In this document: one piece after another, positions 765 through 59,200 of the stretch
How positions within the stretch are numbered: position 1 is the stretch's first letter
How the letters are laid out: every line of letters starts with the position of its first letter
Source: Spizellomyces punctatus DAOM BR117
Taxonomy: Eukaryota
Reading direction: 5' to 3' (one strand)
Length of the DNA stretch: 64,000 nucleotides
Assembly: GCA_000182565.2 (NCBI GenBank)
Contig: KQ257469.1
Made by a program: the position numbers and the translations under genes
The notes under the pieces: model-generated
Database searches by the model: none
What the model saw: only the letters and a program-made list of their open reading frames with translations
Told to the model about the DNA's origin: nothing

Positions 765-1688
765 ATTACAGGAAGTTTTGAACCTGAATAATAAAGACAA
801 ACACTAATCTCTGTCCCACATGGGTCTAGAGGTGGTAGAACACGCACAAGGAACCCACAAACCCTGGCAAAATCACGAGAACGCATTGCAGATACCTGGG
901 ACGGCTGAAACAGTCTGGCCGCGTCAAGCAGCCGTTCTTTTGTGGCTTTTTTGGATATCGACATGTTTCTGGTATTCCAGAGCCAATTTGGCTTTGTTAT
1001 GATTCATCTAACATGCAAGCTAACACATATCTGTAACACGTGCAGGATAAATATGTCGACGGCTATCTCTTCCAGATCCGAGGATTAGCACTTGGGTCAG
1101 CAGCAAATGCCATAATGGCAGCCATCAACGTGTTGAAATTCCTTCTTGCCCAGTCGGACGAGCCATTCAGGAGGTGTCTGAGGGTAATGCGATTGACGAA
1201 TCGACGGAATAAGGAGCAGACTCTTGCTGATAGGGAAAGGCACTCAGCCATCTAGGAGGACGGACCGATTATTTGTGGGTGCAGGTAACTTGGCGATTGA
1301 CCATGGATTTCCATTATTTACGCGATTTCTGCAACTTGTTCTGACAGAAATGAAAATCTTTGCTTCCAGTTCTTGGAAGCAGTGCATTGTCAAAGAATCA
1401 TCGTGGATGGATTGTGGGAAGGGAGAAGGGGGCAGGAAGGCAACGTCTTAGTTGCAAGAGAGGTGCAGAAATACCGCGGTCGCTTTTTATGCTGCAATTC
1501 TGCCTTCACACAGCAAAGAAGTGCGGCTACTTGCAGATCGAATATTGACGGAAAGCAAGTCCCGCACTTCCCTCCAGAATCATATAGCTGTCATTCATGG
1601 CCGGCACGTGATGGTCGTCAGTTCAGTTCAAGAACAGCCACCTGCGTTTTGTCCCTAGCTCTTGGTAACTGATTATCGCTCACAGTGA

Positions 1689-2910
1689 CTACCAGAACAG
1701 ATTTAGCAATGGGGCCCATGATTCAGTTGAACTGCCGGCTCCCACCTGCTTCCTCCATACGTTCTTATATGAAGCCTCCACCTTTGCATACAACGAAGCA
1801 TTGATTTCTGCTGTTCCTTCAACAAAAATCTGGAGTTTTTCCAGTGCGGACTTTGGTGTTTCACAAACGTCTTCTCCAAAAATGAGCGAAGAACTGAACC
1901 CAATGATACTGCCAACTACAGGTACTTTGCAAGCGACTCCGGTATTCGAAACGTCAGTCTTCAGATGTACGGCAACTTTCATGTAGGCATCTACCGTTGA
2001 AAAGATTTAGTAATGTGCGCACTCTGGTGACGTCAGAGAAAACACTTACAACATTGTTTGCATAGCAGTTCGGCTTCTGCTTCAGCCGTTCCGTCCTTGC
2101 TCTGCCGTGCTTTACGATAGATTACGATCGGATCTTGTATGACTTTATTGCTGACTAGGTCATAATTGTAAGGGAGACCAGCGATGGGCCATTCTTTGTT
2201 CACCAGCTCACTAAAGGGAAGTCTCCGTTAAATGAGTCCTTGATTTGGAAATCAGCCATGTGCCAGTTACTCTCTACGTCTTATAGAAGTTGTGACATGC
2301 AGTGGATAGTAGGAGGCTATGTTCGTGCAGACACGAACATATGCAAGTGGTTCTTATATAGGACATTCAAGATCTCTGGTTACCTACCTCGAATATGGGC
2401 ATCTCGAAAACAATCAAAGAAATTCAATCATTCCACCCTCCCGTGAACCCAGCCGTTGCCGTGGTACTCAAACGAGTTGATCGCACGCATATATGCCCCA
2501 CCTACACGCCCGCCGTGTTCCGACACGTCACCACATCCCCAAAACGGACTTGCAGTAATAACAGTGCCGCTATGCTTGTTATGCTCCACCATGATCTCTT
2601 CCGTGAGATAGGCATTGCCGACTTTGAAACAGAGAAGACCTTCTTTGTACTGAACCGTGCTCACATCTTGGCAATCGATGCAGATCAACTGTTCCAGGTC
2701 ATCCAAATTCAAAACATACTTGAGGCGTTCACCGCGAAATCGAATGCGAGTACGACTCCCGTCTGGATTCTCATGTTCCACCAAGTGATCGTACTTCAGG
2801 GTATCATACGTTTCACAGATCGGCTGAGGATTGTCTGTTGCGTATTCCGCGTTCGCTGCGGTAACACCTGCGAGAATGGAGAGCAGCAAAGCTATTAGCC
2901 ATAGCCGCAA
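1689..2910 (-). pseudogene. Decayed multi-exon secreted protein gene (possibly DUF7029/DUF7223-like)
   Basis: Signal-peptide-like LRLWLIALLLSILAGVTAA lacks an in-frame ATG. There is an in-frame stop at 2428 (reading continues LNFFDCFRD). A GT-AG intron joins LLCKQC/YAYMKVAV. The family assignment rests on loose resemblance only. Confidence 0.4.
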
Positions 2911-3522
2911 ATGCGTTGGGCCAATGCACTGGACCGACGAAGCGGTGAACTCGATCGATGAAATCCGGATTCAGCACACCTCGGCTGTTTGAGACAGGCA
3001 ATGCAGTATCCGTAGTGGGATCACATTTCTCATGACGGTCTTTCATAGCCTGCCGAATGTGCATGACATCATGCTCCATGTAATTCACAACACCAATCCG
3101 GCTCAACAATAGAAGAGTGCATGACCCTTCAAAGCACTATGCCATCGAGAAGCGTTCCTTCGTATTGTCTCCATTGAGAGTGGACTTGTCACGAAGGTAT
3201 CCTGCGCGCAATACTAGCGGCAATAGACAGAGAGCATTGTCAAGCTGTAGCGGTACCTGGTAACAGCATGGCAATTCAGATATATGCGCACCATACCCAT
3301 ATTAGGTGCTCACGTAAGCCACTAGCAAGGGCCGACCATCCGAAAGACATTTGACAACTATGGCAAAGCCCCTCAACGTCATCTTTGAACTTGCGCCTTG
3401 CAATCTCAACAATGAAATGCCTCTCTGCATTTGATTCCCAGGATTTCCCAGAAACGCAAATCGCACAATGTAACCCTCATGGTAACTCATTATTGTGGCG
3501 GGCAGTGGCTTAGTCACCAGAC

Positions 3523-3556
3523 CCCTAACCCTAACCGTAACCCTAACCCTAACCCT
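3523..3556 (+). repeat. Interstitial telomere-like repeat (CCCTAA)5, one CCGTAA variant
   Basis: Sequence ccctaa ccctaa ccgtaa ccctaa ccctaa ccct. Confidence 0.95.
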
Positions 3557-4019
3557 GTTAGCACAAATTCAGGGCTTCCAGAGCCATCTTGGTCTTGTCA
3601 ATAAGTCAATAGCTCACTAAATTATTCAAGTTACTGTCCCATGACAATTTTGATGAAATCAATCAAGTAATTCCAACAAAGTGTGTATTCGCAGGCCGGA
3701 CTTAGTGTCCGGAATTAGCTTTAAATAACAAATAACTTGTACTACTGCTAAGCATGATACACCAATCCATGCTTTTACAAATGCCCGAGCTATGCTACAC
3801 TAAGAATGCAAGATACTAGAATGAACACGTGCATTTGTCCTCGACATTTAAGGTTTGCTGGTGATTGTCCGCTCAATGTGTGATTTTGCGCAGTGATTGC
3901 CATGCAACCTGTGAGGGACTCGTTGACTATTCACAATACTAACTAAGCCTTGGTAACCAACTGGGCTGATCCTACTGACAACACCAAATACGGTAAATTG
4001 ACAGCACTGGCCTGCGTGG

Positions 4020-4034
4020 ACCTCCCCAGTTACA
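4020..4034 (+). promoter_or_regulatory. Candidate zinc-responsive element ACCTCCCCAGTTACA (copy 1, ~170 bp upstream of the Pra1-like ATG)
   Basis: 15/15 identical to 11689-11703, and a 12/15 match to the reverse complement of 8227-8241. Confidence 0.65.
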
Positions 4035-4203
4035 AGCACGCAATCTCCATGTTGTTTTCTCCGATCGTTATTTCTTTTTTTTTTTTTTTTTGGGATTGAG
4101 AAAGGATCAGTATACCTCCTTCAGTTGATAGAGGGATAAAAGAGTGGATCTCTTCAGACAATCCCTTCATCAAACAACCTTCAATCCTCATAGTGAGCTC
4201 AAC

Positions 4204-5034
4204 ATGATCGTAAACCAGTCTAGCATTATTCTCGCTCTTGGCTTGACAGCCGCGGTTGCCACCCCTGTTCGCCGTCAACTCCCACCTTCCACCCGGGTTC
4301 AGATGCATTCCTCCTGCAGTGCTTCCCAAAAGCAAACTCTTAACAAGGCTCTCGACGACATGAACAAACTGACTATCCATGCCACCAAACGCATTCTGGA
4401 CAAAACCTACGAGGACCCTGTGTGAGTTTTGTTTTTCGTTGGAATCATATATGCAGTTCTTGAATATCAGACACGTTGTTTTTAGATACCAGACTTACTT
4501 TGGTAATGGAGAATCTGCCACTGTTGTGGGCTATTACGGAATCCTGACTGCCGGGTGAGCACTTGTTCACCACTCTTCTCTCCTAAAGTATCATCTCTCC
4601 CTAACCCTGAATTCTGAATTCGTTGCACAGCAACCAGGAAGGTGTTCTTTTCCGACGTCGACAACAAATGCTCGCAACCCGGTTGGGCCGGTCACTGGCG
4701 CGGGGAAGTCGCTCCTTTGGAAACCGTCATCTGCCCCCTCTCTTTCAACACGACTGCCCGTAAACCTCTCTCCGCCCTCTGCCAGGACGGAGACCGCTTC
4801 TCGCAACACAAGACCAACTACTTCCTCTCCTCCGATTTGATGCATAGGCTTTTCCATGTACCCCTCATCAACCCCGAGGAACGCGTCGACCACTATGCCT
4901 CCAATTACACTGAGGTCACCGCTCTCGCTGCCGCCGACGGTGATAAGGCCGAACACAATCAGGATTCGTACATGTACTTTGCCTTGGATGCGTACGCCCG
5001 CGATGACGTCAATCCTCCTAATGGATGCGTTTGA
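4204..5034 (+). CDS. PRA1: Pra1/Asp f2/Zps1-family secreted zinc-scavenging protein (HRxxH motif); 3 exons; apparent frameshift at ~4655
   Basis: Signal peptide plus family motifs HSSC, YQTYFGNG, GWAGHWRGE, ETVICPLSF, DLMHRLFH, VDHYA, HNQDSYMYFALDAYA and NGC. Exons are 4204-4421, 4486-4554 and 4631(or 4638)-5034. Confidence 0.9.
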
Positions 5035-7086
5035 TATCGGATAGGGATTGTTGTAGTAGAGGCTTTGGATTCATGAGTTGTAGAAAACGGAGTCGGATAT
5101 AGGGCAGAATATATTTTTTTGTACCGCTTTATAAACTTGTTATATGATGTGCAATAAGTGACTACGTCGAGATTCACAATTGCTTTTGATGCTGATATGG
5201 TGTCATCGAAACAATTCATTTAACCATTCCATTTTGGGTTGAATATATATTTTGTACCAATTGCTGGATTCTCACTGAGTTCTTTTCATTTCACCGTGTT
5301 GTGTGCATTTCAGCTCACAACTTGGGCAATATGACCTCTGCAGATACGTGCCTATGATACAGACATGAGTTACACCTCAATGGGGAGATTGATGCATAGG
5401 AAACTGAGACAGGTTTTTCTCGGACGACTTAGGCATTTACTCCGCTGTCCGTCCAAAGATTCTCATTGATTTTCTTTGGGGTCGGACTGCTTCCAGAACC
5501 TTGGCCGACATCTGATCATTGAGCCGTCTGGAAGAAGGTCATCTGGAATGGTACTTGGAAAGACGACCTGTTCATTCAAGATCGCGGTTCCATTTCGTTC
5601 GCCGCTGTGGTTGCGCTCCCGCTCAGATAAGTACTCTTGACTTGCTGTGACTTCCTTTGAAGAATGCAATTGACTCTCGTTAATAGGAGGTTTTGTTGGA
5701 ACTGTATGAAAAGATTGGTTCCACGAGTACCCTATTGTACACGAGAAAGTTGCATATGCTCTCACACATCAGCTGGTCGAAGCACGAAGTCCCACTAGTA
5801 ATCTAACAGGAAAAGGCGAACGACGGCGAACGACCGCAAGCGACGACGGTGAAACGACCTGCAATATTAGAGAAAAAACCACGGGGTAGATGCCGCCGGC
5901 CAAGGTGTCGTCGCTACTGTGCACATAGGACACCTTTACGACCGCAACACGACTACATGGCGGCAGTGAAAGAGCGAAATTGGATTACGAGGTAACCAAA
6001 TATATGTGCCCTTCTGTGTTATGGGTGTAAGATACGGAGGTACGCGTCCATTGTCTTCCAACAGACGTAACTGAAGCAGCAGAAAGCAGGCCCATGAAAG
6101 TTCTTCCACTTCACAATGCATATGATCGATTTTACTGACCGCCAATCGCGGGGAATTGTTATAGAAATGGTATGTCACTACACACAAAAAGTGAGCACTT
6201 TACGACGCTTCCTCCTCATGCAACACACCATAACAATTCCCAGCCAGCACCGCCAAAATATCTACTGCTTTCACCCCGCCGTCATCTCCTTTCTCTTTCC
6301 CGTCCTCAAACCTATTATCTCCCAACGGTCCAATAATCCTCACACGCTCAACCCCACGTCCTGCGAGGTTGAGCGCGTTGGGTTGAGTTCAGTTATGCAA
6401 TCCCCCCAAAATGTGGAGTGGTACCGATGGATACCAACAAAGATCTGAGTGGGAGTGCAGACAGTAACATGAGACTGTTTTCTGGTGAGACTATATCAAG
6501 AACATCGGAGGCCTTACCTCTAGCCGGCCGGGGAAATCTTTGGCCAAAGTTGTTGGAATGCTTGCGCAGATTTTAGAGAGGAGGGGGGTCTTGCATGGCG
6601 TTGATGTTACTGTGGTGGAAATGGATAATAATAGTGAGTTCATTATGAGGGTCATCCATGCAGGGAGAAGTGCCGTATTTCCTTCCAATGGCCTTTCCGA
6701 TAGAATAGAGTCTGCCGTCGCTGAGATCAACTTCCCAGTACCCGATTTTGCTGCTTGAGGATCGTTACGTACGTCGGATAAATCTTGTGCTTTCCAGCCG
6801 GCGTTGAGGATTTTCATGCACTGTCTTAAGTCCAGCCTGTTTGTGGATCTCATTGCTTTTACATATTCCCACATCCCAGGAATTATGCGCCGTAATGTTG
6901 CCGTAACCGGTCCACCCATTTCAGGGAAACATCAAAGTGCTTTACTCGTTATGTAAGATCTGCTAACAAGCAATACATGAGAACAAAAGGTCAACGATAT
7001 GTCGTCTTTGGGCTGCAAGCGAGTTGCATGAAGCTTACCCGATCAAACATTTCAAGACCATGTTTTACGAGATGTTCCGCTGTTAG

Positions 7087-7110
7087 CCCTCACCCTAACC
7101 CTAACCCTAC
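7087..7110 (+). repeat. Interstitial telomere-like repeat (4 units, 2 variant)
   Basis: Sequence ccctca ccctaa ccctaa ccctac. Confidence 0.85.
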
Positions 7111-8226
7111 GATCATCAAGACACGTTCTCCTGTCCTACAGCCCGCTGGGTCTGGAGAAGGCTTCATAAACGGCTCTCCCTCCGCTCCATAACCATTTTC
7201 ACAACACAGTACTGGACCAGCTCGGACGAATGATTCAACTGCTCGCCAGGGCCATGTGTAAAAAACATTCTTTACCAGTTTCAACCCATTCAAGGAAAAG
7301 CAATCAATTTCCGTATTGTCTGGTAACTGCCGTTTTGGACCAAGTCGACTTCGAGGCCTTTGCACACCTTGCCAGTGGTGGAGGCGGTGTACTGGGGCCT
7401 GATAAATTGAACAGTCCCGGATTGTAGAATGTCATTCAAGTGCTGTTTCTTGATGAGGTGGTGACAAAAGTCGATGAACAGGAATGAGGTTGGCACATGG
7501 AGTCGCTTTGCTGATGAACTCATTTATTTCCCTGATCTCATCCATCCGCCCGTTGACTCCTGGCAAAATCGCCAAAGGAGCTACTCCCCTATCTTGCTGG
7601 ATGAGAACATCAGAACGTGAGCAGAATATCTCTACAGCCGCATTTTAACCATCTTAAATGTGACGTACGTATCATGTTGCGATACGGATGCAATCAGATG
7701 AACAACTATGTAGGTTACGATATTGGCAGCAACCCTTGAAGAGATTCTCTCATCTTGAGTTCTCTAACTAGTCTAAACTAGAAGAAAAACCTCTATTTAT
7801 ACAAACTAGTGCAAAGCACACGTATGGTGATCTGAGGGTGGATCGCATTACCACACATCAGCATTGATATCCACCAAGCTTGTCAGCCACTCGATCCCGT
7901 ACCCGGAAGAGTCTCGTTCGACGACCCAACCACTGCCGTCTTTTATCAACTACCAAATAGCGTCTCTTACGGCCACTGTGAGTAGCGGCAGCCCTCGCAT
8001 ACCGTTTAAGTTGTAGGAGGCGTTTCTACTCTTCGTCACTACAGAGGGAGACAGGATACTTGTTCACCTCAACATAAGAGTCAAGGCAAGGAGGTCATAT
8101 GGGTTTCGGGAGTCACACCAAGAAAAGCGGGTTATGGGGAGTTTGCTTGTTTGGCATTTTGCTTTGGGAAAAAGGGGGAAACGACGGGAAGGTGTGGAGG
8201 GAGATTCAGAGTGCAGTCAGTGAAGG

Positions 8227-8241
8227 TGTAACGGGGAGGGT
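8227..8241 (-). promoter_or_regulatory. Candidate zinc-responsive element variant ACCCTCCCCGTTACA (~190 bp upstream of the COG0523 fusion ATG)
   Basis: The reverse complement matches ACCTCCCCAGTTACA at 12/15. A second weaker copy, CCCTCCATAGTTATA (11/15), lies at 8320-8334. Confidence 0.5.
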
Positions 8242-8433
8242 ACTCACGGTGGCACGGGTCTATCCGTCACGTGCATTGTCGCAATTTAGCACCACACTGT
8301 ACGGGTACAACAAACGAGTCCCTCCATAGTTATATGCGGTGTGCACACTTCAAACTTCTCGTTGCTCCGCTCGTTGTCCACTCCTCCATCTACCAACTTT
8401 ACTGTTCCTTGAATCCTACTACCTGCTCAAAGA

Positions 8434-11327
8434 ATGGTTACCATCGACCGCATCACTCTCGGATGCAATATCGCCACACTCACAGCAAAAGTCACCGCTG
8501 TGAATAAACGCATCGTCAGCGACGACTCACGAAAATCTAACAAGACGGAACCCACAAAAAAGCGAACGCTAATGGAAGTAGAAGTGACCGATCCAACGGG
8601 AAGGATTGTCTTAATATGTTCAGAGAGTGAGTGGCTTTGAATCACGCGCTGCGCTAGTATCTCACCTCATTGTCACTCACGAGGGTTTCTCAGGCTATAC
8701 CTCTGTTGTAAAGTACGGACGTATGATTCATATAACTGGAAGAACTACATGTTACCGTGGGCGCTTGCAAATTCAAGGTCATATTTCACAGACCATCTTC
8801 CATACCTCGGCCGCATGAGGACTAATCTCGCTGTGATGTTGGTTTGCCTTTATAGTGGGTGACAAATGGGGATCGATCCACAAAGCCGCTGGTGGGGAAA
8901 GCTTTGGCTGCTTGGAGTTTTCTGCTGTCAACAACCTCTCTGAATGCGTAAGTTTTGTAATACCGTTCTTTACCTACTCTTTGAGACTATTTTCTGATCT
9001 TGTGTCCGGGTTTAAAGGTTCGTGAATATGGGGTGCTTCTCCTGAACCAAAAGAACACGGGCACGATTGAGTTCCTTCTTGTCCAAAACCATAAAACGCA
9101 CGGCGAGCCTCTCTGGACCGTTCCGACGGAGATCCCCTTCCTTAGAGACACCGAGAAGGACGCAGGTGAGCATATACCAAATTTTTTTTTTACTTTGGGC
9201 GTGGCTTTTACGAAAACAAACATTTGACAATCACAACAGCGACCCGCGCTCTAATCAACGCGACCGCCGTCACCGAATACGCGTTCGCGCTTCTCCATCA
9301 AACTCCTCCCAGCCTCGTTTCTTCCTCTTCGGACAACACGAAGCGATACATTTACATGGGCCTTGTTAACCCACTCATAGCAGATTCCGGGGAACTCGGA
9401 GAAAACGTAGCGTGGTTCACAATGGACATGATAAAAAACGAACAAGTGAAGGTTGAGGAGTGGGTTATCAGTCTTTTGACCGAAGCTTTTGCAGCTAAGC
9501 AAGGCGGCGAGAAGGAAAACATTTCCGCTGTGGTACCCATCCCGCCGAAATCAGTTCCCATCTTAGCAGCACCTCCCAAGAAAAGACTACCCGTGACGGT
9601 CTTATCAGGATTCCTTGGAGGTATGGTAACCATCGCCCGGAGATAATACAGCAATCGGAATACCTTATTCGATTTCAACCAAATTAGCCGGAAAGACCAC
9701 ACTACTGAACTCAATCCTAAACAAAACCCACAATCTCCGTGTTTGTGTCATTGTCAACGACATGGGTGAGATCAATATTGACTCAAAACTCATCGAGAGA
9801 GGTAAATCCTGATGCACGCGTTTCGGTAACGAATACATCCACCGGACCATTCATACTTCTTCGGTATAACACAGAAGGTTTCACCAATACTGATGAAAAG
9901 TTGGTTGAGTTAACAAACGGATGCATATGGTAAGCGAGTAGAATGATACGAAATGAAGATCCGTGTGATACCCACTCCTTACCGTGTACCATTAGCTGTA
10001 CTCTACGAGAAGACTTGCTCGAACAAGTATCCCATCTGGCCTCGCTGAATAAGTTCGACTACCTCCTCATTGAATCTTCCGGTAGGTACCCCTCCGCATA
10101 TCATTGCGTAGTGGCAGAGACTTACAGAACATTGTTATTCATTGATCTGATCTTTTCCTTATATAGGTATCAGCGAACCCCTCCCCGTTGCGGAGACATT
10201 TGAATTTGAAACAGACATTCCCGGTTACAAATCCTTGATGGATGTGGCCAGGCTGGACACGATGGTTACTTTGGTCGACTCGGTATGGCCTGATGCGCTT
10301 ATTGAATTGGCGCTGCTGTTGACATTCTCCTCAAACCAAGGTAAACTTTCTGAATGACTTTTGGACATCGGATACGTTGCGAAAACGCCGCTTGAACAGC
10401 ACATCCACTGATACACGAACGATTGTGGAGTTGCTCCGAGACCAGGTCGAGTTTGCAAATGGTAAGGAATAGGGGGCAGCGGAAAATGGCGCGAGCGTTT
10501 TGCAAACCTGAAGAGTCACACCACACTTTTCTTACAACATCATCATAGTTCTTATTCTTACCAAAACAGATCTTGTTTCCGATGAGTATTTGAATAAACT
10601 CAAAGCTATCGTAAACAGTTTAAACCCTGCAGCGAAGATTCTGTTCTCGTCTCACGGAAACGTAGACCCGCAAGAGATCTTGAATACTGGACTCTTTTCC
10701 CTCGAGAAAGTCAGGAACAACAAAAATTGGCTGCTCGAACCGCGGTGAGTAACTTCACCTCATAGCGACGATAACTGAAAGTGAGCGTAACCGCATGCAA
10801 TCAATTCACAGGGGATCGCACATCCCCGAAACAATCGAATACAACATTACTCATACAGTCTTCACATCCCAAACTCCCTTACACCCCACTCGTTTATGGA
10901 ACCTCGTGCATCGTTCCGACACCATGTCATCAGTCATTCGATCGAAAGGATTCGTTCATTTGGCTACTCAACCCAGGTATCCCGTTACGTGGTCTCACAC
11001 CGGAAATATAACGACCTTTCGTCTCGGTGGTGTGCCATGGGAAACGGAAGAGGATCGATCCCAGTGCTTGGTTTTTATTGGGATTGGGCTGGAGGTGGAA
11101 AAGGTAACGTGCAGCGGATAGACTTCCTTTAACCCATGCTGCTGTTGGTGTGATTGGGCGATATACACTGACGATTGTGATTTTCTTCATTTCTGATCAT
11201 TTTGTGCCTGCTGCAGATTCACAAAGAGCTCGGCAAGTGTTTGTTACGCCGTAAGGAGTTGGCGATGGGCGAAAGATTTTGGTTGAGGGAATTTTATGAT
11301 CCATTTAGGGAGGTTTTACACAAGTGA
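8434..11327 (+). CDS. COG0523 (CobW/YciC/Zng1-family) G3E zinc-chaperone GTPase with N-terminal OB-fold and Nudix-like domains; multi-exon
   Basis: Motifs LPVTVLSGFLGAGKTTLLN (Walker A), VIVND, ELTNGCICCTLREDL (CxCC), DYLLIESSGISEPLPVAETF, DQVEFAN, LTKTDL, and a CobW_C region (RSKGF, ending YDPF). The introns joining exon 1 (ATG 8434) through to the P-loop exon are phase-compatible. Confidence 0.9.
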
Positions 11328-11688
11328 TGGTAACAGTAACCCGAGCGCTTTCTTGTTTGTTTGTATGTTAGCCCTTTATAGTACATCTCAGCTATCCACC
11401 ACCATTGTAGGAAGGATGATAAAATCGCATTTGATAAACGCTATGTATTTGGAGGTTCTCTAGGATATACGGCTACTCGCACAGTAACTTTGACAATAGA
11501 TTATTGAATATGGAGTTGATTTCATTTTGCCATGTCAGGATTAGTGTTGGACATTGTCCGACATGTCTCATTGGGTTTTCAGAAGGTCTCTTGACAAGTT
11601 ACCGTGCGGGGTGTAAAATTCCGAGCTCTATGTTCGCTAAGCCGCGTCATTTCAAACGATTGCGCCATAGCTAAGCCACAAGTCAAGT

Positions 11689-11703
11689 ACCTCCCCAGTT
11701 ACA
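11689..11703 (+). promoter_or_regulatory. Candidate zinc-responsive element ACCTCCCCAGTTACA (copy 2, ~100 bp upstream of the oxidoreductase ATG)
   Basis: Identical to 4020-4034. Confidence 0.65.
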
Positions 11704-11805: not shown

Positions 11806-13826
11806 ATGCAAGAACTACTGGTCATTGGCGCTGGTCCACACGCTCTCGCTCTCCTCGCCACTCTCCTAGAATCTACACCAGACAAGTACCTCGAACACCC
11901 GGAGAACGGTCTCCTCTTCTACCGCACGCGTCCAGATGCTGGAGACTCTGCTCGTACATCCCACCTTCTCCTCGCAAGAGATACTCACTATGATTCCTCG
12001 AGACGACCAAGGAAGACGGACAGAGACGCCGTGGCTCGAGTTTTGAATGGACTTGGCGCCCGTGGTGCCAGATGTTCTGTTCACAAAAAGGATCGAGGAA
12101 TGATTGATGCTCATGTTGATGAAAGAGTTAGAGGACCAGGCTCTTTAAAGACAGGGCTAACAGGTTCTGGTGCTGGTGCGGGGATCTGTCCGCCGGTTGA
12201 ATGGATCAAGGAACACACTCTGGTCCTCGACAAGCTCGGTGGAACAGGGTATGCTGGTGGGAAAGAATGCCGCAAACTAGGAACGTGGATGTCGCTGTGG
12301 AGAAAGCAGATGGAGTTTTTGGTAAGTTAACACACAACGTCAAGTGTTCTCTTGCATAGTGCGAGCTGGAATCCCTGAACTTGATCCTTTCTTCAGCGGG
12401 TGCCGCATCTTCGCAGTCCCATCTCACACCACCCCGACCCTATCGACCGCTCGATTCTATGGCAGTACGCCATGGCAAAGCGACGCACATCAGATGCGGA
12501 CTTGGTTCCATTGCATATTCTCCGTGATCGCTCTTATACCGGACCGTTCATCTTACCCTCTACTGAACTATTCTGGAGTTTCTGCGCGGACTCACTTGTT
12601 AATGGTTTTGGAATAAGAGACCTGGTGCAAAGCGGGGAAGCTGTTGATATTGTCCCGGTTCCATGTGGATGTTCTGTGGACGATAATCAGGACCTTAGTA
12701 ACGAACAAAACGCACAAAGTAAATTCTGCGATCATTTTCGAGTGGAATTTAAGGACGGACGATTGGTGAACGCGCGGAATGTGGTGGTGGCAGTGGGGTC
12801 CAGTTCCTGCGAACGGAATATACCTGCATGGGTAAAGACGTTGCCTCCGGGATATCCCAAGCATTGCCTTTGCCATTGTTTCGACATCGCGTTGGATGAT
12901 GCCACGTACCTAAAGTCCTTTAGTTCAGCAAAGAAAGGGCCGCTCCGGCACAAGTCTGTAGTAATTATTGGAGGAGGAATCACCAGGTAAGACATTGGAG
13001 GAGGGCCGCTGACTTTTTCGCTGCTTGACAGCTCGCTAATCGACCTCACGCCCATGTTCGTTGCAAACAAAAATAGCATTCACGTCTCCCGAACTGCTTT
13101 AGACCTCGGTTGCAACTCCGTTGTGCTCCTCTCCCGTTCCAAGCTCCGCATCCAACCTTTCGACGTCGACGTTCGGTGGGTTGGCCCGCATCGATCCACC
13201 AATATAGCACAATTCTGGTCGGACAATGAGTACCAAAGCCGGGCACACCGCCTTCGTTTGGCCAGATTTCCTCCGAAGGCGGATGAGGCCTACTCTGGGA
13301 GTGGCGCAACGATAACGCATGAAGCAATGGAGCTAGTAAGAGATGACTTGGCTAGCGGCAAGATGAGTGTAACGCAAGAAGTTGAAGTCATTAGTGCAAA
13401 GTGGTATGAGGAGGTTCCGCAACATGGAAAATGGGAATTGCTTTTGAGCAATGGATCGACGATTGCTTGCAATATTATCTGGCAAGTAGTGGTGCTCATT
13501 TACTGTGGAATTGCTAAACACTAACAAGAGCTCATCCACCATATGTTTGCAGGCTCGCAACCGGCACACGCAACACCGTTTCTACTAATACCCTCCTACA
13601 CACCGTCGCCAAACACTACCCCATTCCCATACAAAACGGTCTACCCTCCCTTCGCGAAGATTTATCCTGGTCCCGCAACTGTCCTGGTTTATTTGTCATG
13701 GGATCTTTGGCGGCTCTTCAAGTCGGACGGGGTGCACCGAATTTGATGGGAGGTCGGGCTGCCGCAGGAAGGATCAGTAGAAGTTTGATAGAAAGACTGA
13801 GGAAGGCTTATAGAGCTGGGCAGTAG
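11806..13826 (+). CDS. FAD/NAD(P)-binding oxidoreductase (class B flavoprotein / N-hydroxylase-like fold); multi-exon
   Basis: LLVIGAGPHAL (FAD site), W..Q, HLRSP..HHPDP, PSTELF, VVVAVG, VVIIGGGIT (NAD(P) site), WLATG and LFVMGSLAALQVGRGAPNLMGGR. Stop TAG at 13824-13826. The last intron uses a GC donor (gcaagt, ~13483). Confidence 0.85.
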
Positions 13827-14013: not shown

Positions 14014-14037
14014 TGGTCCAACCCCTGCCCTAACCCT
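14014..14037 (+). repeat. 24-bp direct repeat copy 1 TGGTCCAACCCCTGCCCTAACCCT
   Basis: Identical to 14593-14616; contains a telomere-like CCCTAACCCT. Confidence 0.95.
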
Positions 14038-14592: not shown

Positions 14593-14616
14593 TGGTCCAA
14601 CCCCTGCCCTAACCCT
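14593..14616 (+). repeat. 24-bp direct repeat copy 2 TGGTCCAACCCCTGCCCTAACCCT
   Basis: Identical to 14014-14037. Confidence 0.95.
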
Positions 14617-56200: not shown

Positions 56201-59200
56201 GATATCGTGGGGTGGATTCTATGTCAATGGATGGCCCAACACGGATGATAAAGGAATTGCCTATTTTGCTTGGGGCGTTGGAAGTTACCCCGGTTGGGAT
56301 GATGTTGTGTGAGTTTGATGATGTGTGAGAGCGTCCGAAATCAGTGCTAATTTCTGCTTTTCAATATAGGTCGACTCGTCAGGCGTCAAGCTTGCAACAA
56401 ATTGGAATGGCACTTGGATTGAATCTCCTTAACGGCGAGACCTTGTACGCCACGGTTACTGCTTACAGCCACGCTGGTCTGGGTACCACATCCATATCGC
56501 CGGCAGTCATTGTTGACTATACCGGTCCAGTTTCGGACGCAGGAATTACCTCCATAAGCGTTGTCCGTAACACAGATGGATCCTATAATGTGCGAGCTAT
56601 GTGGGATACTTTTGACGACTTGGAAAGTTCAGTCGTATCTGTAGGATGGATAATCGAAACGGAATATGGGCTGCAGGATGTAGTGCCGTTGACTCCCACC
56701 GATACACCCATATTCGCGACCGGCAAATCGCTTACATTGTCGTCTGGCGTTGAGTACATTGCTCGGGTAGTTGCCACAAATGGAGCGGGTTTGACCCAAG
56801 AAGTGACACGCTCCTTTGAAGTCGACAACATTGTTCGAATCGTGTATGTAGCCAGCGACGGGCCGGAAGGCGCATGGAGTCCTTACACTGGATTAGCATC
56901 AAAGTATTCCTTTTCTTGGGAAGTTACTGGTCATCCATCGTACTTCCTTGTTGCCGTAGGGACCAGGGCAAAGCAGCACGATGTTGAAGGATGGGTACGA
57001 CTCAGTGGCTCCGCAAGGCAATTCGACCTGGATTTGAGTGATACAAGCTTCACAGATGGAGAGACGCTCTATGGTACAGTTTACGCTTTCGATGCGAATG
57101 GAGTGTTGGCGGATCAAGCGACAACGTCCGGCAAGATCATAGACTCCAGTCCACCTGCCATTGGAAAGGTGGTGCATGGTGCAATCCCTTACATACATCA
57201 GCCTTTTGTGGACTCTGTCGATCATATCACAGCATCTTGGTCCGGGTTCACGGATGCGGATAGTGGAATCGCTCTTTACGAAGTTTGCGTGGATTCATCT
57301 CCAGTTGCAAATGGAACTCTACCGTGCAGCAACCTTGATTGGAAGCCCGTGAATGACAGAATTTCCCAGATGCATTTGGTTATGGAACATCTCATGACGA
57401 TAGGTTCCACATACTATGTCAAGGTAACCGTTAATGAATTGCTCATATATTTTGTCGCGCATTTAAGCTCACAAATGCTGGTTCCAGGTGAAAGCGACCA
57501 ATGGCGCCGGATTGTTCACAGTTGGGGTGTCACCTCCTATTCTGATAGATGCTGGTGTACCATCAGGAGGCAGTGTTACCGTTGGCTTTCCGTCGCAGGA
57601 TAGTAATTTTACGTTGATGACATCGCATTCTGATCAGCTTTATTATCTGGACAGAACAGGTATGGTGCCTACCTTTCTGCATTTGAAACATGTTCACGAT
57701 CATAGTGATAACGGTCATCTTTCAGTTATTCAGATTACTTGGGACTTCTCCACGGCCCCAATATCAGGAATTGCAAACTATGATGTCGGACTTTATGAAA
57801 AGTATACCAGCATGCGCATGACACCTCCGACGACAGTTCCAGGTGGAATAAATTCCTGGACCTTTACTGCCGCAACAGGGGATTTCACTCTGGAAGAGGG
57901 TCGTGAATATGTGGCAGTGGTGCTAGCAACCAGTGGCTCTCGTGTTGTGGGCGAAGTCAAGTCAAGGTCTTTCATGGTTGATTCAACAGCGCCCCCGGCA
58001 GGAGCCGTTGATGTTACTTTCTTGGGCGCTGTGCCTAGGGCTAGCTCTACCAGTGCAGCTACGTTCGGCGTCAGCAGTTCTGGAGTCGCCTCAAGCATCT
58101 CTTCCGGTATTAGCAATTCCGGAGTCGCATCTAGCATCTCTTCCGGCATTAGCAGTTCCGGAGTCGCATCAAGCATCTCTTCTGGCATTAGCAATTCCGG
58201 ATTTGCATCAAGCATCTCTTCCGGCGTCAGCAGTTCCGGAGCTGCATCAAGCATCTCTTCCGGCGTCGGCAATTCCGAAGCCAGCTCAAGTATCTCGTCC
58301 GATAACATCAGTGTAACTGAATCTGACTCGAATGGTACCCCCTCCCCTACAATTCCGACGAGCTCCCAATCAGGTAGCGACTCGGCGGCGATGACCGATT
58401 ATCAATCCAGCTCTACCATTTCGCCTTTGAGCACCCCAAGCATACTACCTGATCTTACCAATTTCCGCGTAAATTTCCAAGGATTCTCAGATGCCGCATC
58501 TGGGGTTGTCCTGTACAGAGTGGATGTGAGTGTGACATTTCATACCTGCTTGTTGTCAAGCGGACAGCTTATCGCCTATTTTGCTAGGTCGGACTTCATC
58601 CTTACGGCGCGCAAGTCGCAACCGTGGAAGTGAACGACACTTGTGAGACTTGTTCTGCAATTTTCTCCGCAGAATTACGCAACAGGGCAATGTATTTTGC
58701 AACAGGTTTGCTTCTTGCTCTGCTACTCGTACGCCTTTGCTTAACTTTCTAATCTTTCGGAAAAGTTTACGCACGGGACGCTGCCGGGTTGTGGTCTCGT
58801 CCAGCTACGAACGGCCGTGTGTATAGCGCAAATGGTGATGTTTTGGTACAAACCACGACCAATCCACCCTTTCAATGGACCATTGACGCCGCGTTGCCGA
58901 CCGTGCTCGACTTTGTTGCCCAAAATGGTTCTGCAATCACGCTCACAGGCCGAGGTCTGAATAACTTTATAATTTCAGGAGATGGCGCTATACAGCCGAA
59001 TTTCACTTGCCTTTATACCCTTGACGCGGCGACAGATTCGACATCTATATCAACGTCACTCTCTCTGAGCGACCGCGCCGAAGCTCAAATATTGTGTCAA
59101 GTACCAGATCTTGGGTTGGGAAATGTCACTACCTGGGTGAACTTGACAGTGGTTCCTACGGACGCGGTGTACGGCACGTCTTCAATGATCTGGCTGCAGC

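Follow-up and report, generated by a model that had tools for sequence, protein, structure and literature searches.

What is the role of a 15-letter word that stands exactly repeated before two genes of the soil chytrid fungus Spizellomyces punctatus, and which protein might read it? An earlier note on a 64 kb stretch of the 24.1-Mb genome (hereafter the window) had placed the word at 4020-4034 and 11689-11703, about 170 and 100 bp before the start codons at 4204 and 11806, together with an inverted 12/15 copy at 8227-8241 and an 11/15 copy at 8320-8334, and had proposed a zinc-responsive element bound by a lineage-specific regulator. All four copies and both distances were confirmed, the 11/15 copy by direct reading of the sequence. 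Database proteins identical to products of this genome are filed under S. punctatus. From its gene associations the word does appear to behave as a zinc-regulon element; the idea of a lineage-specific regulator was not supported, the genome apparently encoding an ortholog of the Zap1 and ZafA regulators of yeast and Aspergillus. We put at about four in five the probability that the word forms part of an 18-bp binding site for that ortholog, P0036, and is thus a variant of the Zap1/ZafA zinc-response element (ZRE).

Taken on its own, the observation within the window was weak, or modest. The word gave four matches at up to three mismatches against 1.46 expected, a count reached by 4 of 100 shuffles, and some four repeated 15-mer pairs are expected by chance anywhere in 64 kb, the corresponding expectation within three 300-bp promoters being 5e-4. 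Throughout the genome, for which all statements derive from IUPAC pattern searches (with the reversed pattern as control) and individually inspected loci, the exact word occurred twice, solely as the window copies, and at up to one mismatch there were four matches as compared with three for the reversed control. Of the two additional copies thus obtained, that at C2:390439 scored below 11 bits and is likely due to chance; the other lay 114 bp before a Zrt1-like ZIP gene on contig C3, the promoter of which carried six related sites, all on one strand. These led to the pattern ACCTC-N4-GTTAY, a 14-mer drawn from the window and the C3 ZIP promoter, and 16 of its 72 new genomic matches, chosen by likeness of the spacer ahead of any annotation, were inspected. 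The letters GAGT, which likewise precede the window and C3 ZIP sites and had formed no part of the search, stood 5' of four of the 72 (0.28 expected, p 2e-4), and these four adjoined a divergent nicotianamine synthase (NAS)/ThrE gene pair, an oligopeptide transporter (OPT) gene, an ABC transporter gene and a paralog of the window flavoprotein. The NAS and OPT promoters were found to hold second and third copies beside the first matches.

The resultant element, GAGT-ACCYY-MNNR-GTTRY, spans 18 bp and carries 20.9 bits as derived from 18 sites in eight promoters, the same sites that constitute the scoring matrix; the earlier 15-mer is only part of it, four further 5' letters and a fifth window copy (Pra1-a, Table 1) having been overlooked. 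The sites sit before eight sets of metal-acquisition genes, at distances of 69-938 bp, namely those for the Pra1 zincophore, the predicted COG0523 fusion, two paralogous flavoproteins, two Zrt1-like ZIPs, the NAS/ThrE pair and an OPT of putative yellow stripe-like (YSL) type. A discovery matrix built from the window and C3 ZIP sites only gave the seven remaining, held-out sites 17.1-27.1 bits, as against at most 14.3 in 49 kb of background, and leave-one-gene-out scores ranged from 9.0 to 28.6 bits. C6, C7, G14, T15 and T16 were invariant in all 18 sites, followed by C9 (16/18), A17 (15/18), A5 and G13 (12/18 each); position 10 was A or C in every site and position 4 G or T in 17, while A occurred at position 11 in one site and at position 12 in three. 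A reading of CAGTTA as a Myb-type site was dropped, since its first letters fall at the variable positions 12-13 and most of the information lies in the left half. In four promoters a minus-strand copy was followed by a plus-strand copy 71-112 bp away, and the minus-strand members of three such pairs (window 3904, L013:3415, L027:3807) share the 12-letter core CCCTCACAGGTT, which hints at a fixed paired architecture.

The element lies within ~1.2 kb upstream of Pra1 and of both Zrt1-like ZIP genes, and the expectation that it would precede ZIP transporters was thus borne out for these two (six and one strong sites), weakly for a ZupT/Zrt3-like ZIP (15.9 bits, 58 bp before the start codon), and not for the other two of the five ZIP loci examined (best 6.2 and 1.3 bits). 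The parallel expectation for other COG0523 genes failed at all three promoters (best ≤9.4 bits), and there was likewise no site before the iron permease gene FTR1 (best 6.9 bits) or seven other OPT genes (best ≤8.8 bits). Further genes with a site near the start codon encode an ABCG transporter (249 bp), a JmjC protein (28 bp) and a two-finger C2H2 protein (80 bp). The flavoprotein paralog shares ~30% identity with the window flavoprotein (E 2e-19). The NAS gene (PF03059, E 6e-44) is divergent from the ThrE-family gene, with sites 240 and 311 bp from ThrE and 536 and 607 bp from NAS, and one OPT site lies closer to a divergent uracil-DNA glycosylase gene than to OPT, so that either neighbour may be the target of those sites. 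Exon pieces of this OPT, on contig C23, exceeded the cut-off for PF03169 and fell below those for TIGR00728 and TIGR00733, and did not match the peptide-OPT model; the N-terminal motif, which we take to be of YSL type, is common to three of the seven other OPTs (four of eight in all: L140, L141, L144, L027), one of the four having the element. PDB searches with the OPT pieces and the flavoprotein gave no match and that with NAS only 3o31 (E 0.01), while Atlas searches returned no cluster named YSL. In Neurospora, NAS is reportedly induced by zinc. Fungal NAS, with Chytridiomycota entries, was noted earlier in the accessible part of PMC10248798; in the open-licence literature searched, neither a chytrid ZRE nor a zinc regulon of fungal NAS and YSL genes was found described. 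The new part of the present proposal is this predicted regulon, above all a possible set for nicotianamine synthesis, export and uptake under Zap1. Two side observations concern the sites themselves: two tandem copies 22 bp apart occupy a long intergenic region (L032:1479-1518; G000:C3:531289 and 531311), the nearest downstream frame of which has no convincing family, and a ZIP site on C5 (L006:4065) and the JmjC site (L026:3166) share ten further 3' letters.

The gene of the candidate regulator, located on contig C11 (G000:C11, ~161.2-163.0 kb) by means of a short helix pattern, encodes a protein of 502 residues with eight zinc fingers (ZFs) in the Zap1/ZafA layout, N-terminal CWCH2 pairs included, and PF21816 (Zap1_zf1) matched this protein twice over the cut-off. 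Its recognition helices include QRQKVMR (ZF4), ESSNLTK (ZF7) and RPDQVAR (ZF8). Comparison by eye with Additional file 6 of PMC2837044 showed ZF4 to be QRQKLIR/QKQKLIR in the yeasts S. cerevisiae and C. albicans and QKSKLQG in A. fumigatus, ZF7 to be ESSNL.K in five of seven species, ZF8 to be RPDQ..R in Ustilago, Cryptococcus and Aspergillus and degenerate in both yeasts, and ZF5 to be variable among the species compared. By its fingers, PF21816 matches and helices, P0036 is best regarded as the Zap1/ZafA ortholog; it is conserved in 12 other early-diverging fungal proteins that were aligned, its helices recur in the orthologs of Spizellomyces sp. 'palustris', Powellomyces, Gaertneriomyces and Fimicolochytrium, and Atlas searches returned unnamed fungal C2H2 clusters and none named Zap1.

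Finger-to-base assignments rest on the C2H2 recognition code established with Zif268. That code would have ZF8 read G-A-G with G or T next and ZF7 read K-A-C, and the variable ZF5 would cover the variable middle of the site; it leaves T15 and positions 16-18 unexplained. The mechanism proposed thus begins with an 18-bp site upstream of eight metal-acquisition gene sets, often as a minus-then-plus pair, and with a genome-encoded eight-finger protein of Zap1/ZafA layout and recognition helices. Its fingers would read the element, GAGTACCYYMNNRGTTRY, in antiparallel fashion, ZF8 (R-P-D-Q-V-A-R) at GAG, ZF7 (E-S-S-N-L-T-K) at KAC, ZF6 at CYY, ZF5 at the loose middle and ZF4 (Q-R-Q-K-V-M-R) at (G)GT and probably TA. 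By analogy with yeast and Aspergillus, falling zinc would then lead P0036 to activate the promoters bearing the element, with greater production of Pra1, ZIP uptake, the COG0523 chaperone and the flavoproteins, and of the synthesis and transport of a nicotianamine-type chelator.

Two bodies of data from other organisms bear on this proposal. The flavoprotein family (963 representatives, with weak Pyr_redox_2 and lysine/ornithine oxygenase matches) has cyanobacterial members, and in the best 80 of 346 cyanobacterial loci, which represent related genomes rather than independent events and all match P0121, COG0523, CobW_C, ZnuA or ZnuB lay within 5 kb in 53. Further neighbours in these 80 were HemB (12), FolE (4), HisI (3), ThrS (2) and a Zur-repressed all3515 protein (2). 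Such neighbours appear to provide a link to zinc that is independent of the motif; an operon presumed for Anabaena, in which COG0523 adjoins an FAD oxidoreductase, did not appear among the papers listed by a literature search. The other body of data comprises metagenomic ZIP loci from unidentified eukaryotes (best 80 of 321). In a first count of 48 loci with at least 700 bp upstream, there were 16 upstream occurrences of the published ZafA pattern and a single downstream one. A second count (72 loci once duplicates had been taken out, 46 with 500 bp upstream), for which the patterns were picked with the outcome of the first known, gave 28 upstream and two downstream for RRGKACCYT (4.5 in shuffles), and eight and three for ACCYY-N4-GTTA (1.4 in shuffles). 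Locus L127, left out of these counts on account of its short flank and agaricomycete-like by our own reading, carries two full-length sites at a distance of 63 bp, GAGT-ACCCT-CACA-GTCAC on the minus and GAGG-ACCCT-GCCA-GTTAC on the plus strand, paired as in the chytrid. Together these counts suggest a frame common across fungi and a middle of the site that is lineage-specific. A scan of the metagenomes for Pra1 found no relatives among 142 stretches.

A number of results weigh against assignment of the element to P0036. The pattern ACCTC-N4-GTTAY gave 77 genomic matches as compared with 165 for its reversed control and hence no bulk excess, loose patterns were not enriched over controls (31 vs 26 and 58 vs 59), and 14 of the 26 matches of another search fell outside the eight promoters, at least five of them in coding exons; those in exons of tubulin, dynein, Kelch, paraoxonase and REJ protein genes were taken as chance. 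In the second metagenomic count the chytrid-type left half was not enriched (two upstream, four downstream, 3.1 in shuffles), and the chytrid matrix at 12 bits or more found 1/48 foreign upstream regions as against 1/42 downstream. The recognition code fails at position -1 of both ZF4 and ZF5. The 417 bp upstream of the P0036 gene (L058:2984-3400) hold no site (best 0.4 bits), nor does any of L058 reach 11 bits, whereas zafA and CSR1 carry sites in their own promoters. The ZafA core CARGGT (ACCYTG on this strand) occurred in none of the 18 chytrid sites, none of which has G10. In the one RNA run quantified (stranded, 3'-biased, 6% read, conditions and zinc status not stated), the 3' end of the COG0523 gene reached a depth of 15.9; Pra1 bins stood at 0.1-0.8 and the flavoprotein body at 0-0.2, with 1.9 in its last bin. 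These depths fit rich-medium repression for two of the three window genes and prove nothing. Two ChIP runs, X17 and X18, for which no target is stated, showed nothing of use. Lastly, the accessible part of PMC12638772 describes Znf1, a C2H2 factor of Rhizopus microsporus (of the Mucoromycota, not a chytrid, and likewise early-diverging), which on zinc depletion binds zrt1, zrt3 and zrg17 and switches them on. It is called Zap1-like by family, with 2009 peaks and, in the source data, Azf1 as the best JASPAR column; another zinc-finger class may therefore serve some early-diverging fungi.

This last result lends some weight to an alternative that we consider improbable, namely that the site is a genuine zinc-regulon site read by another, lineage-specific factor, for instance an Azf1-like one as in Rhizopus or the product of the two-finger C2H2 gene already mentioned (L052:1420-1518; G000:C20:134.7 kb, minus strand), a small gene whose product ends in a Cys/His-rich tail. 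In its middle the site does depart from those of ZafA and yeast, and the two-finger gene has a copy 80 bp before its start codon where the Zap1 ortholog has none. Two C2H2 fingers read ~6-7 bp, however, too few for a site of 18 bp; published Zap1-family sites agree with it in register at either end, the ZF7 and ZF8 helices predict GAG-KAC, and unrelated ZIP genes show an upstream enrichment of this frame. The two-finger gene is a possible secondary regulator. Another zinc-finger gene, at C14:437 kb, was rejected as regulator, having three fingers, presumably of Crz1 type, and a site 1.3 kb away.

We judge it quite improbable that P0036 reads the site with a different signal or sign, be it general metal starvation or, at some of the promoters, repression. 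Iron or other metals could be what NAS, OPT and the flavoprotein handle, the antisense RNA that runs across the COG0523 promoter is strong, such that repression by driving antisense is conceivable, and ZafA represses some genes too, according to the accessible text of PMC6070888. Against this, FTR1, the iron permease gene taken for comparison, lacks the site, and Pra1, the Zrt1-like ZIPs and the cyanobacterial neighbours all point to zinc. That the site arose by chance or from a dispersed repeat, or is a core-promoter word or a mimic of a splice site, is very improbable indeed: notwithstanding the roughly four repeated 15-mers expected in 64 kb, the want of bulk enrichment for loose patterns and the overlap of the 8228 site with the GTGAGT of a used 5' splice site, the flanks are unrelated as the earlier note had held (22 sites pairwise share a mean of 15.4 and a maximum of 26 of 60 flank letters), 18 sites cluster at eight functionally linked promoters, GT precedes only one of the 18, and sites of at least 22 bits, expected 1.4 times per genome, number 13 of 18 under the full and thus partly circular matrix, while five of seven held-out sites reach about 22 bits under the discovery matrix.

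Table 1. Element copies, genes and antisense transcript in the window (scores in bits per site).
Feature	Position	Strand	Details
Pra1-a	3904..3921	-	GAGTCCCTCACAGGTTGC; 282 bp before Pra1 ATG; 24.6 bits, 23.5 with gene left out
Pra1-b	4016..4033	+	GTGGACCTCCCCAGTTAC; 170 bp before ATG; 22.3 bits; contains first 15-mer
Pra1/Aspf2-like secreted zincophore gene	4204..5034	+	introns predicted from sequence
Spliced antisense transcript	7700..9976	-	7 introns; spans COG0523 5' half and promoter
COG-a	8228..8245	-	GAGTACCCTCCCCGTTAC; 188 bp before ATG; 18.7 bits, 13.1 with gene left out
COG-b	8316..8333	+	GAGTCCCTCCATAGTTAT; 100 bp before ATG; 20.2 bits
COG0523 GTPase gene, predicted N-terminal extension	8434..11327	+	3' introns in cDNA, 5' part predicted
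Flavo1	11685..11702	+	AAGTACCTCCCCAGTTAC; 103 bp before ATG; 24.4 bits; contains second 15-mer
FAD/NAD(P)-binding flavoprotein gene (P0121, 609 aa)	11806..13826	+	uncharacterised family

With regard to the window genes (Table 1), the last exon of Pra1 matched PF13933 (HRXXH, E 1e-43), and a PRA1 orthologue in S. punctatus is mentioned in the accessible part of PMC3386192. The COG0523 gene contains PF02492 and PF07683 along with a weak OB-fold match (PF21473, E 0.008), and the best NCBIfam match of its C-terminal exon was ZigA (E 3e-20, below cut-off). Its six sense GT..AG joints were seen solely from 9928 on; the N-terminal extension (8434-9600) consists of the weak PF21473 match and a middle part without family, the fusion being predicted. 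The copy at 8227 did match inverted at 12 of 15 letters, but proved to be an in-register variant (ACCCT) as opposed to a decayed copy with three mismatches. It lies across the 5' splice site of the last antisense intron, which begins on the 8228 site. Evidence for the antisense RNA consists of CT..AC joints in the spliced contigs of run X6, from the same strain as the genome, one stranded read at the last joint, and a minus-strand depth of 81 over 7710-8163 in run X16. It contains no start-to-stop frame of note, the longest stop-free stretch being 120 codons, and as an abundant non-coding RNA it could be a regulatory transcript.

Other features of the window were recorded in passing. Divergent from Pra1 lies a 180-codon frame (2431-2970, minus strand) with a signal-peptide-like stretch and Cys/His residues, for which Pfam and NCBIfam searches gave no match; RNA over this region (1000-3600) is of the plus strand. 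Short interstitial telomere-like (CCCTAA)n runs occur between genes at 740-761, 3523-3556 and 7091-7110, as well as in introns of the C3 ZIP gene (L004), a 24-bp direct repeat, its copies identical and telomere-like at one end, lies at 14014-14037 and 14593-14616, and a tandem array with a period of ~39 bp lies inside a long frame at 58066-58270. Reads with several differing letters pile up at 3583-3667 in three runs, which suggests a diverged second genomic copy of this short stretch.

Were P0036 to read the element as proposed, the Zap1/ZafA circuit would extend back to the chytrids, and three published motifs that look dissimilar would be united in a single scheme by which, finger by finger, the protein predicts its site. 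There would follow a short predicted regulon, of which a candidate route by way of a small-molecule zincophore would form part, as would an uncharacterised flavoprotein linked to zinc starvation in fungi as well as cyanobacteria; a set of compact candidate zinc-repressible promoters for a chytrid would be a further gain. A broader reading, which we hold only tentatively and think rather doubtful as a whole, is that a Zap1-controlled NAS chelator is exported by ThrE and re-imported as its zinc complex by the YSL-type OPT alongside Pra1, that the flavoproteins supply a second zinc-starvation function shared with cyanobacteria, and that the 18-bp site is near the ancestral fungal ZRE; if so, the yeast and Aspergillus sites would have arisen by loss of ZF8 or ZF4 contacts.

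When set beside the known zinc-response sites, taken here from the accessible parts of the respective papers, the chytrid, yeast, C. albicans and ZafA sites align in one frame, ACCYY-N4-GT. The yeast ZRE, ACCTTNAAGGT or ACCYYNAAGGT, has its specificity mostly at ACC and GGT (PMC2688839). Both ends occur at the same spacing in the chytrid (G13 in 12/18 sites, GT at 14-15 in 18/18), but the yeast site is only 11 bp long and its AA middle is not kept, so that the strict ACCYYNAAGGT fails. The earlier statement that the motif shares only an ACCT end is therefore not supported; the GGT end was hidden because both exact copies happen to have A at position 13. Matches also reach 12 of 13 letters with C. 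albicans Zap1 motif 1, ACCTTGGTGGTTA (Nobile 2009, PMC2688839), and 12 of 15 with ZafA sites.

The likeness to C. albicans extends to the register ACCYY-N4-GTTA, which the chytrid site at C20:134818 matches at 12 of 13 letters, to the GGTTA 3' end (G13 12/18, G14-T16 18/18, A17 15/18), to the ZF4 helix (QKQKLIR vs QRQKVMR), and to motif occurrences at PRA1 and ZRT genes. In the accessible text no 5' GAGT flank is reported for C. albicans, where ZF8 is degenerate, the middle is G-G-T-G as against M-Y-N-R, and CSR1 is bound at its own promoter, unlike the chytrid regulator gene. The ZafA motif DYYVYCARGGTVYYY, with its essential CARGGT core (Vicentefranqueira 2018, PMC6070888), reads RRRB-ACCYT-GRBR-RH on the other strand and shares with the chytrid the GAG/AAG flank, the ZF8 helix RPDQ..R and, in aspf2 and the zrf genes, targets akin to Pra1 and ZIP. 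The opposite strand of one of its Table 3 sites, ACTCCCAAGGTACTC (AFUA_5G12780), matches the chytrid site OPT-3 at 12 of 15 letters. ZafA sites lack the GTTA end, the ZF4 (QKSKLQG) and ZF5 (RQATLER) helices of A. fumigatus are unlike those of the chytrid, and the words nicotianamine and oligopeptide are absent from the main text of that paper. The chytrid element is thus probably ZRE-like by position, targets and protein match while failing strict membership of either the ZafA or the yeast consensus; it would combine the 5' flank of the Aspergillus sites with the 3' end of the Candida motif and is longer than either the yeast or the Aspergillus site because P0036 keeps both the ZF4 and ZF8 helices.

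A final comparison concerns the chelator genes. The chytrid set is a predicted one, its candidate exporter is of the ThrE family and, save for NAS and ThrE, its members are unlinked. In common with the plant nicotianamine/YSL system, with ENA1 export and YSL uptake of metal-nicotianamine (PMC10341464, accessible part), and with the opine-type zincophores of bacteria, it would nonetheless place a synthase, an exporter-family gene and an OPT-family transporter under one metal signal.

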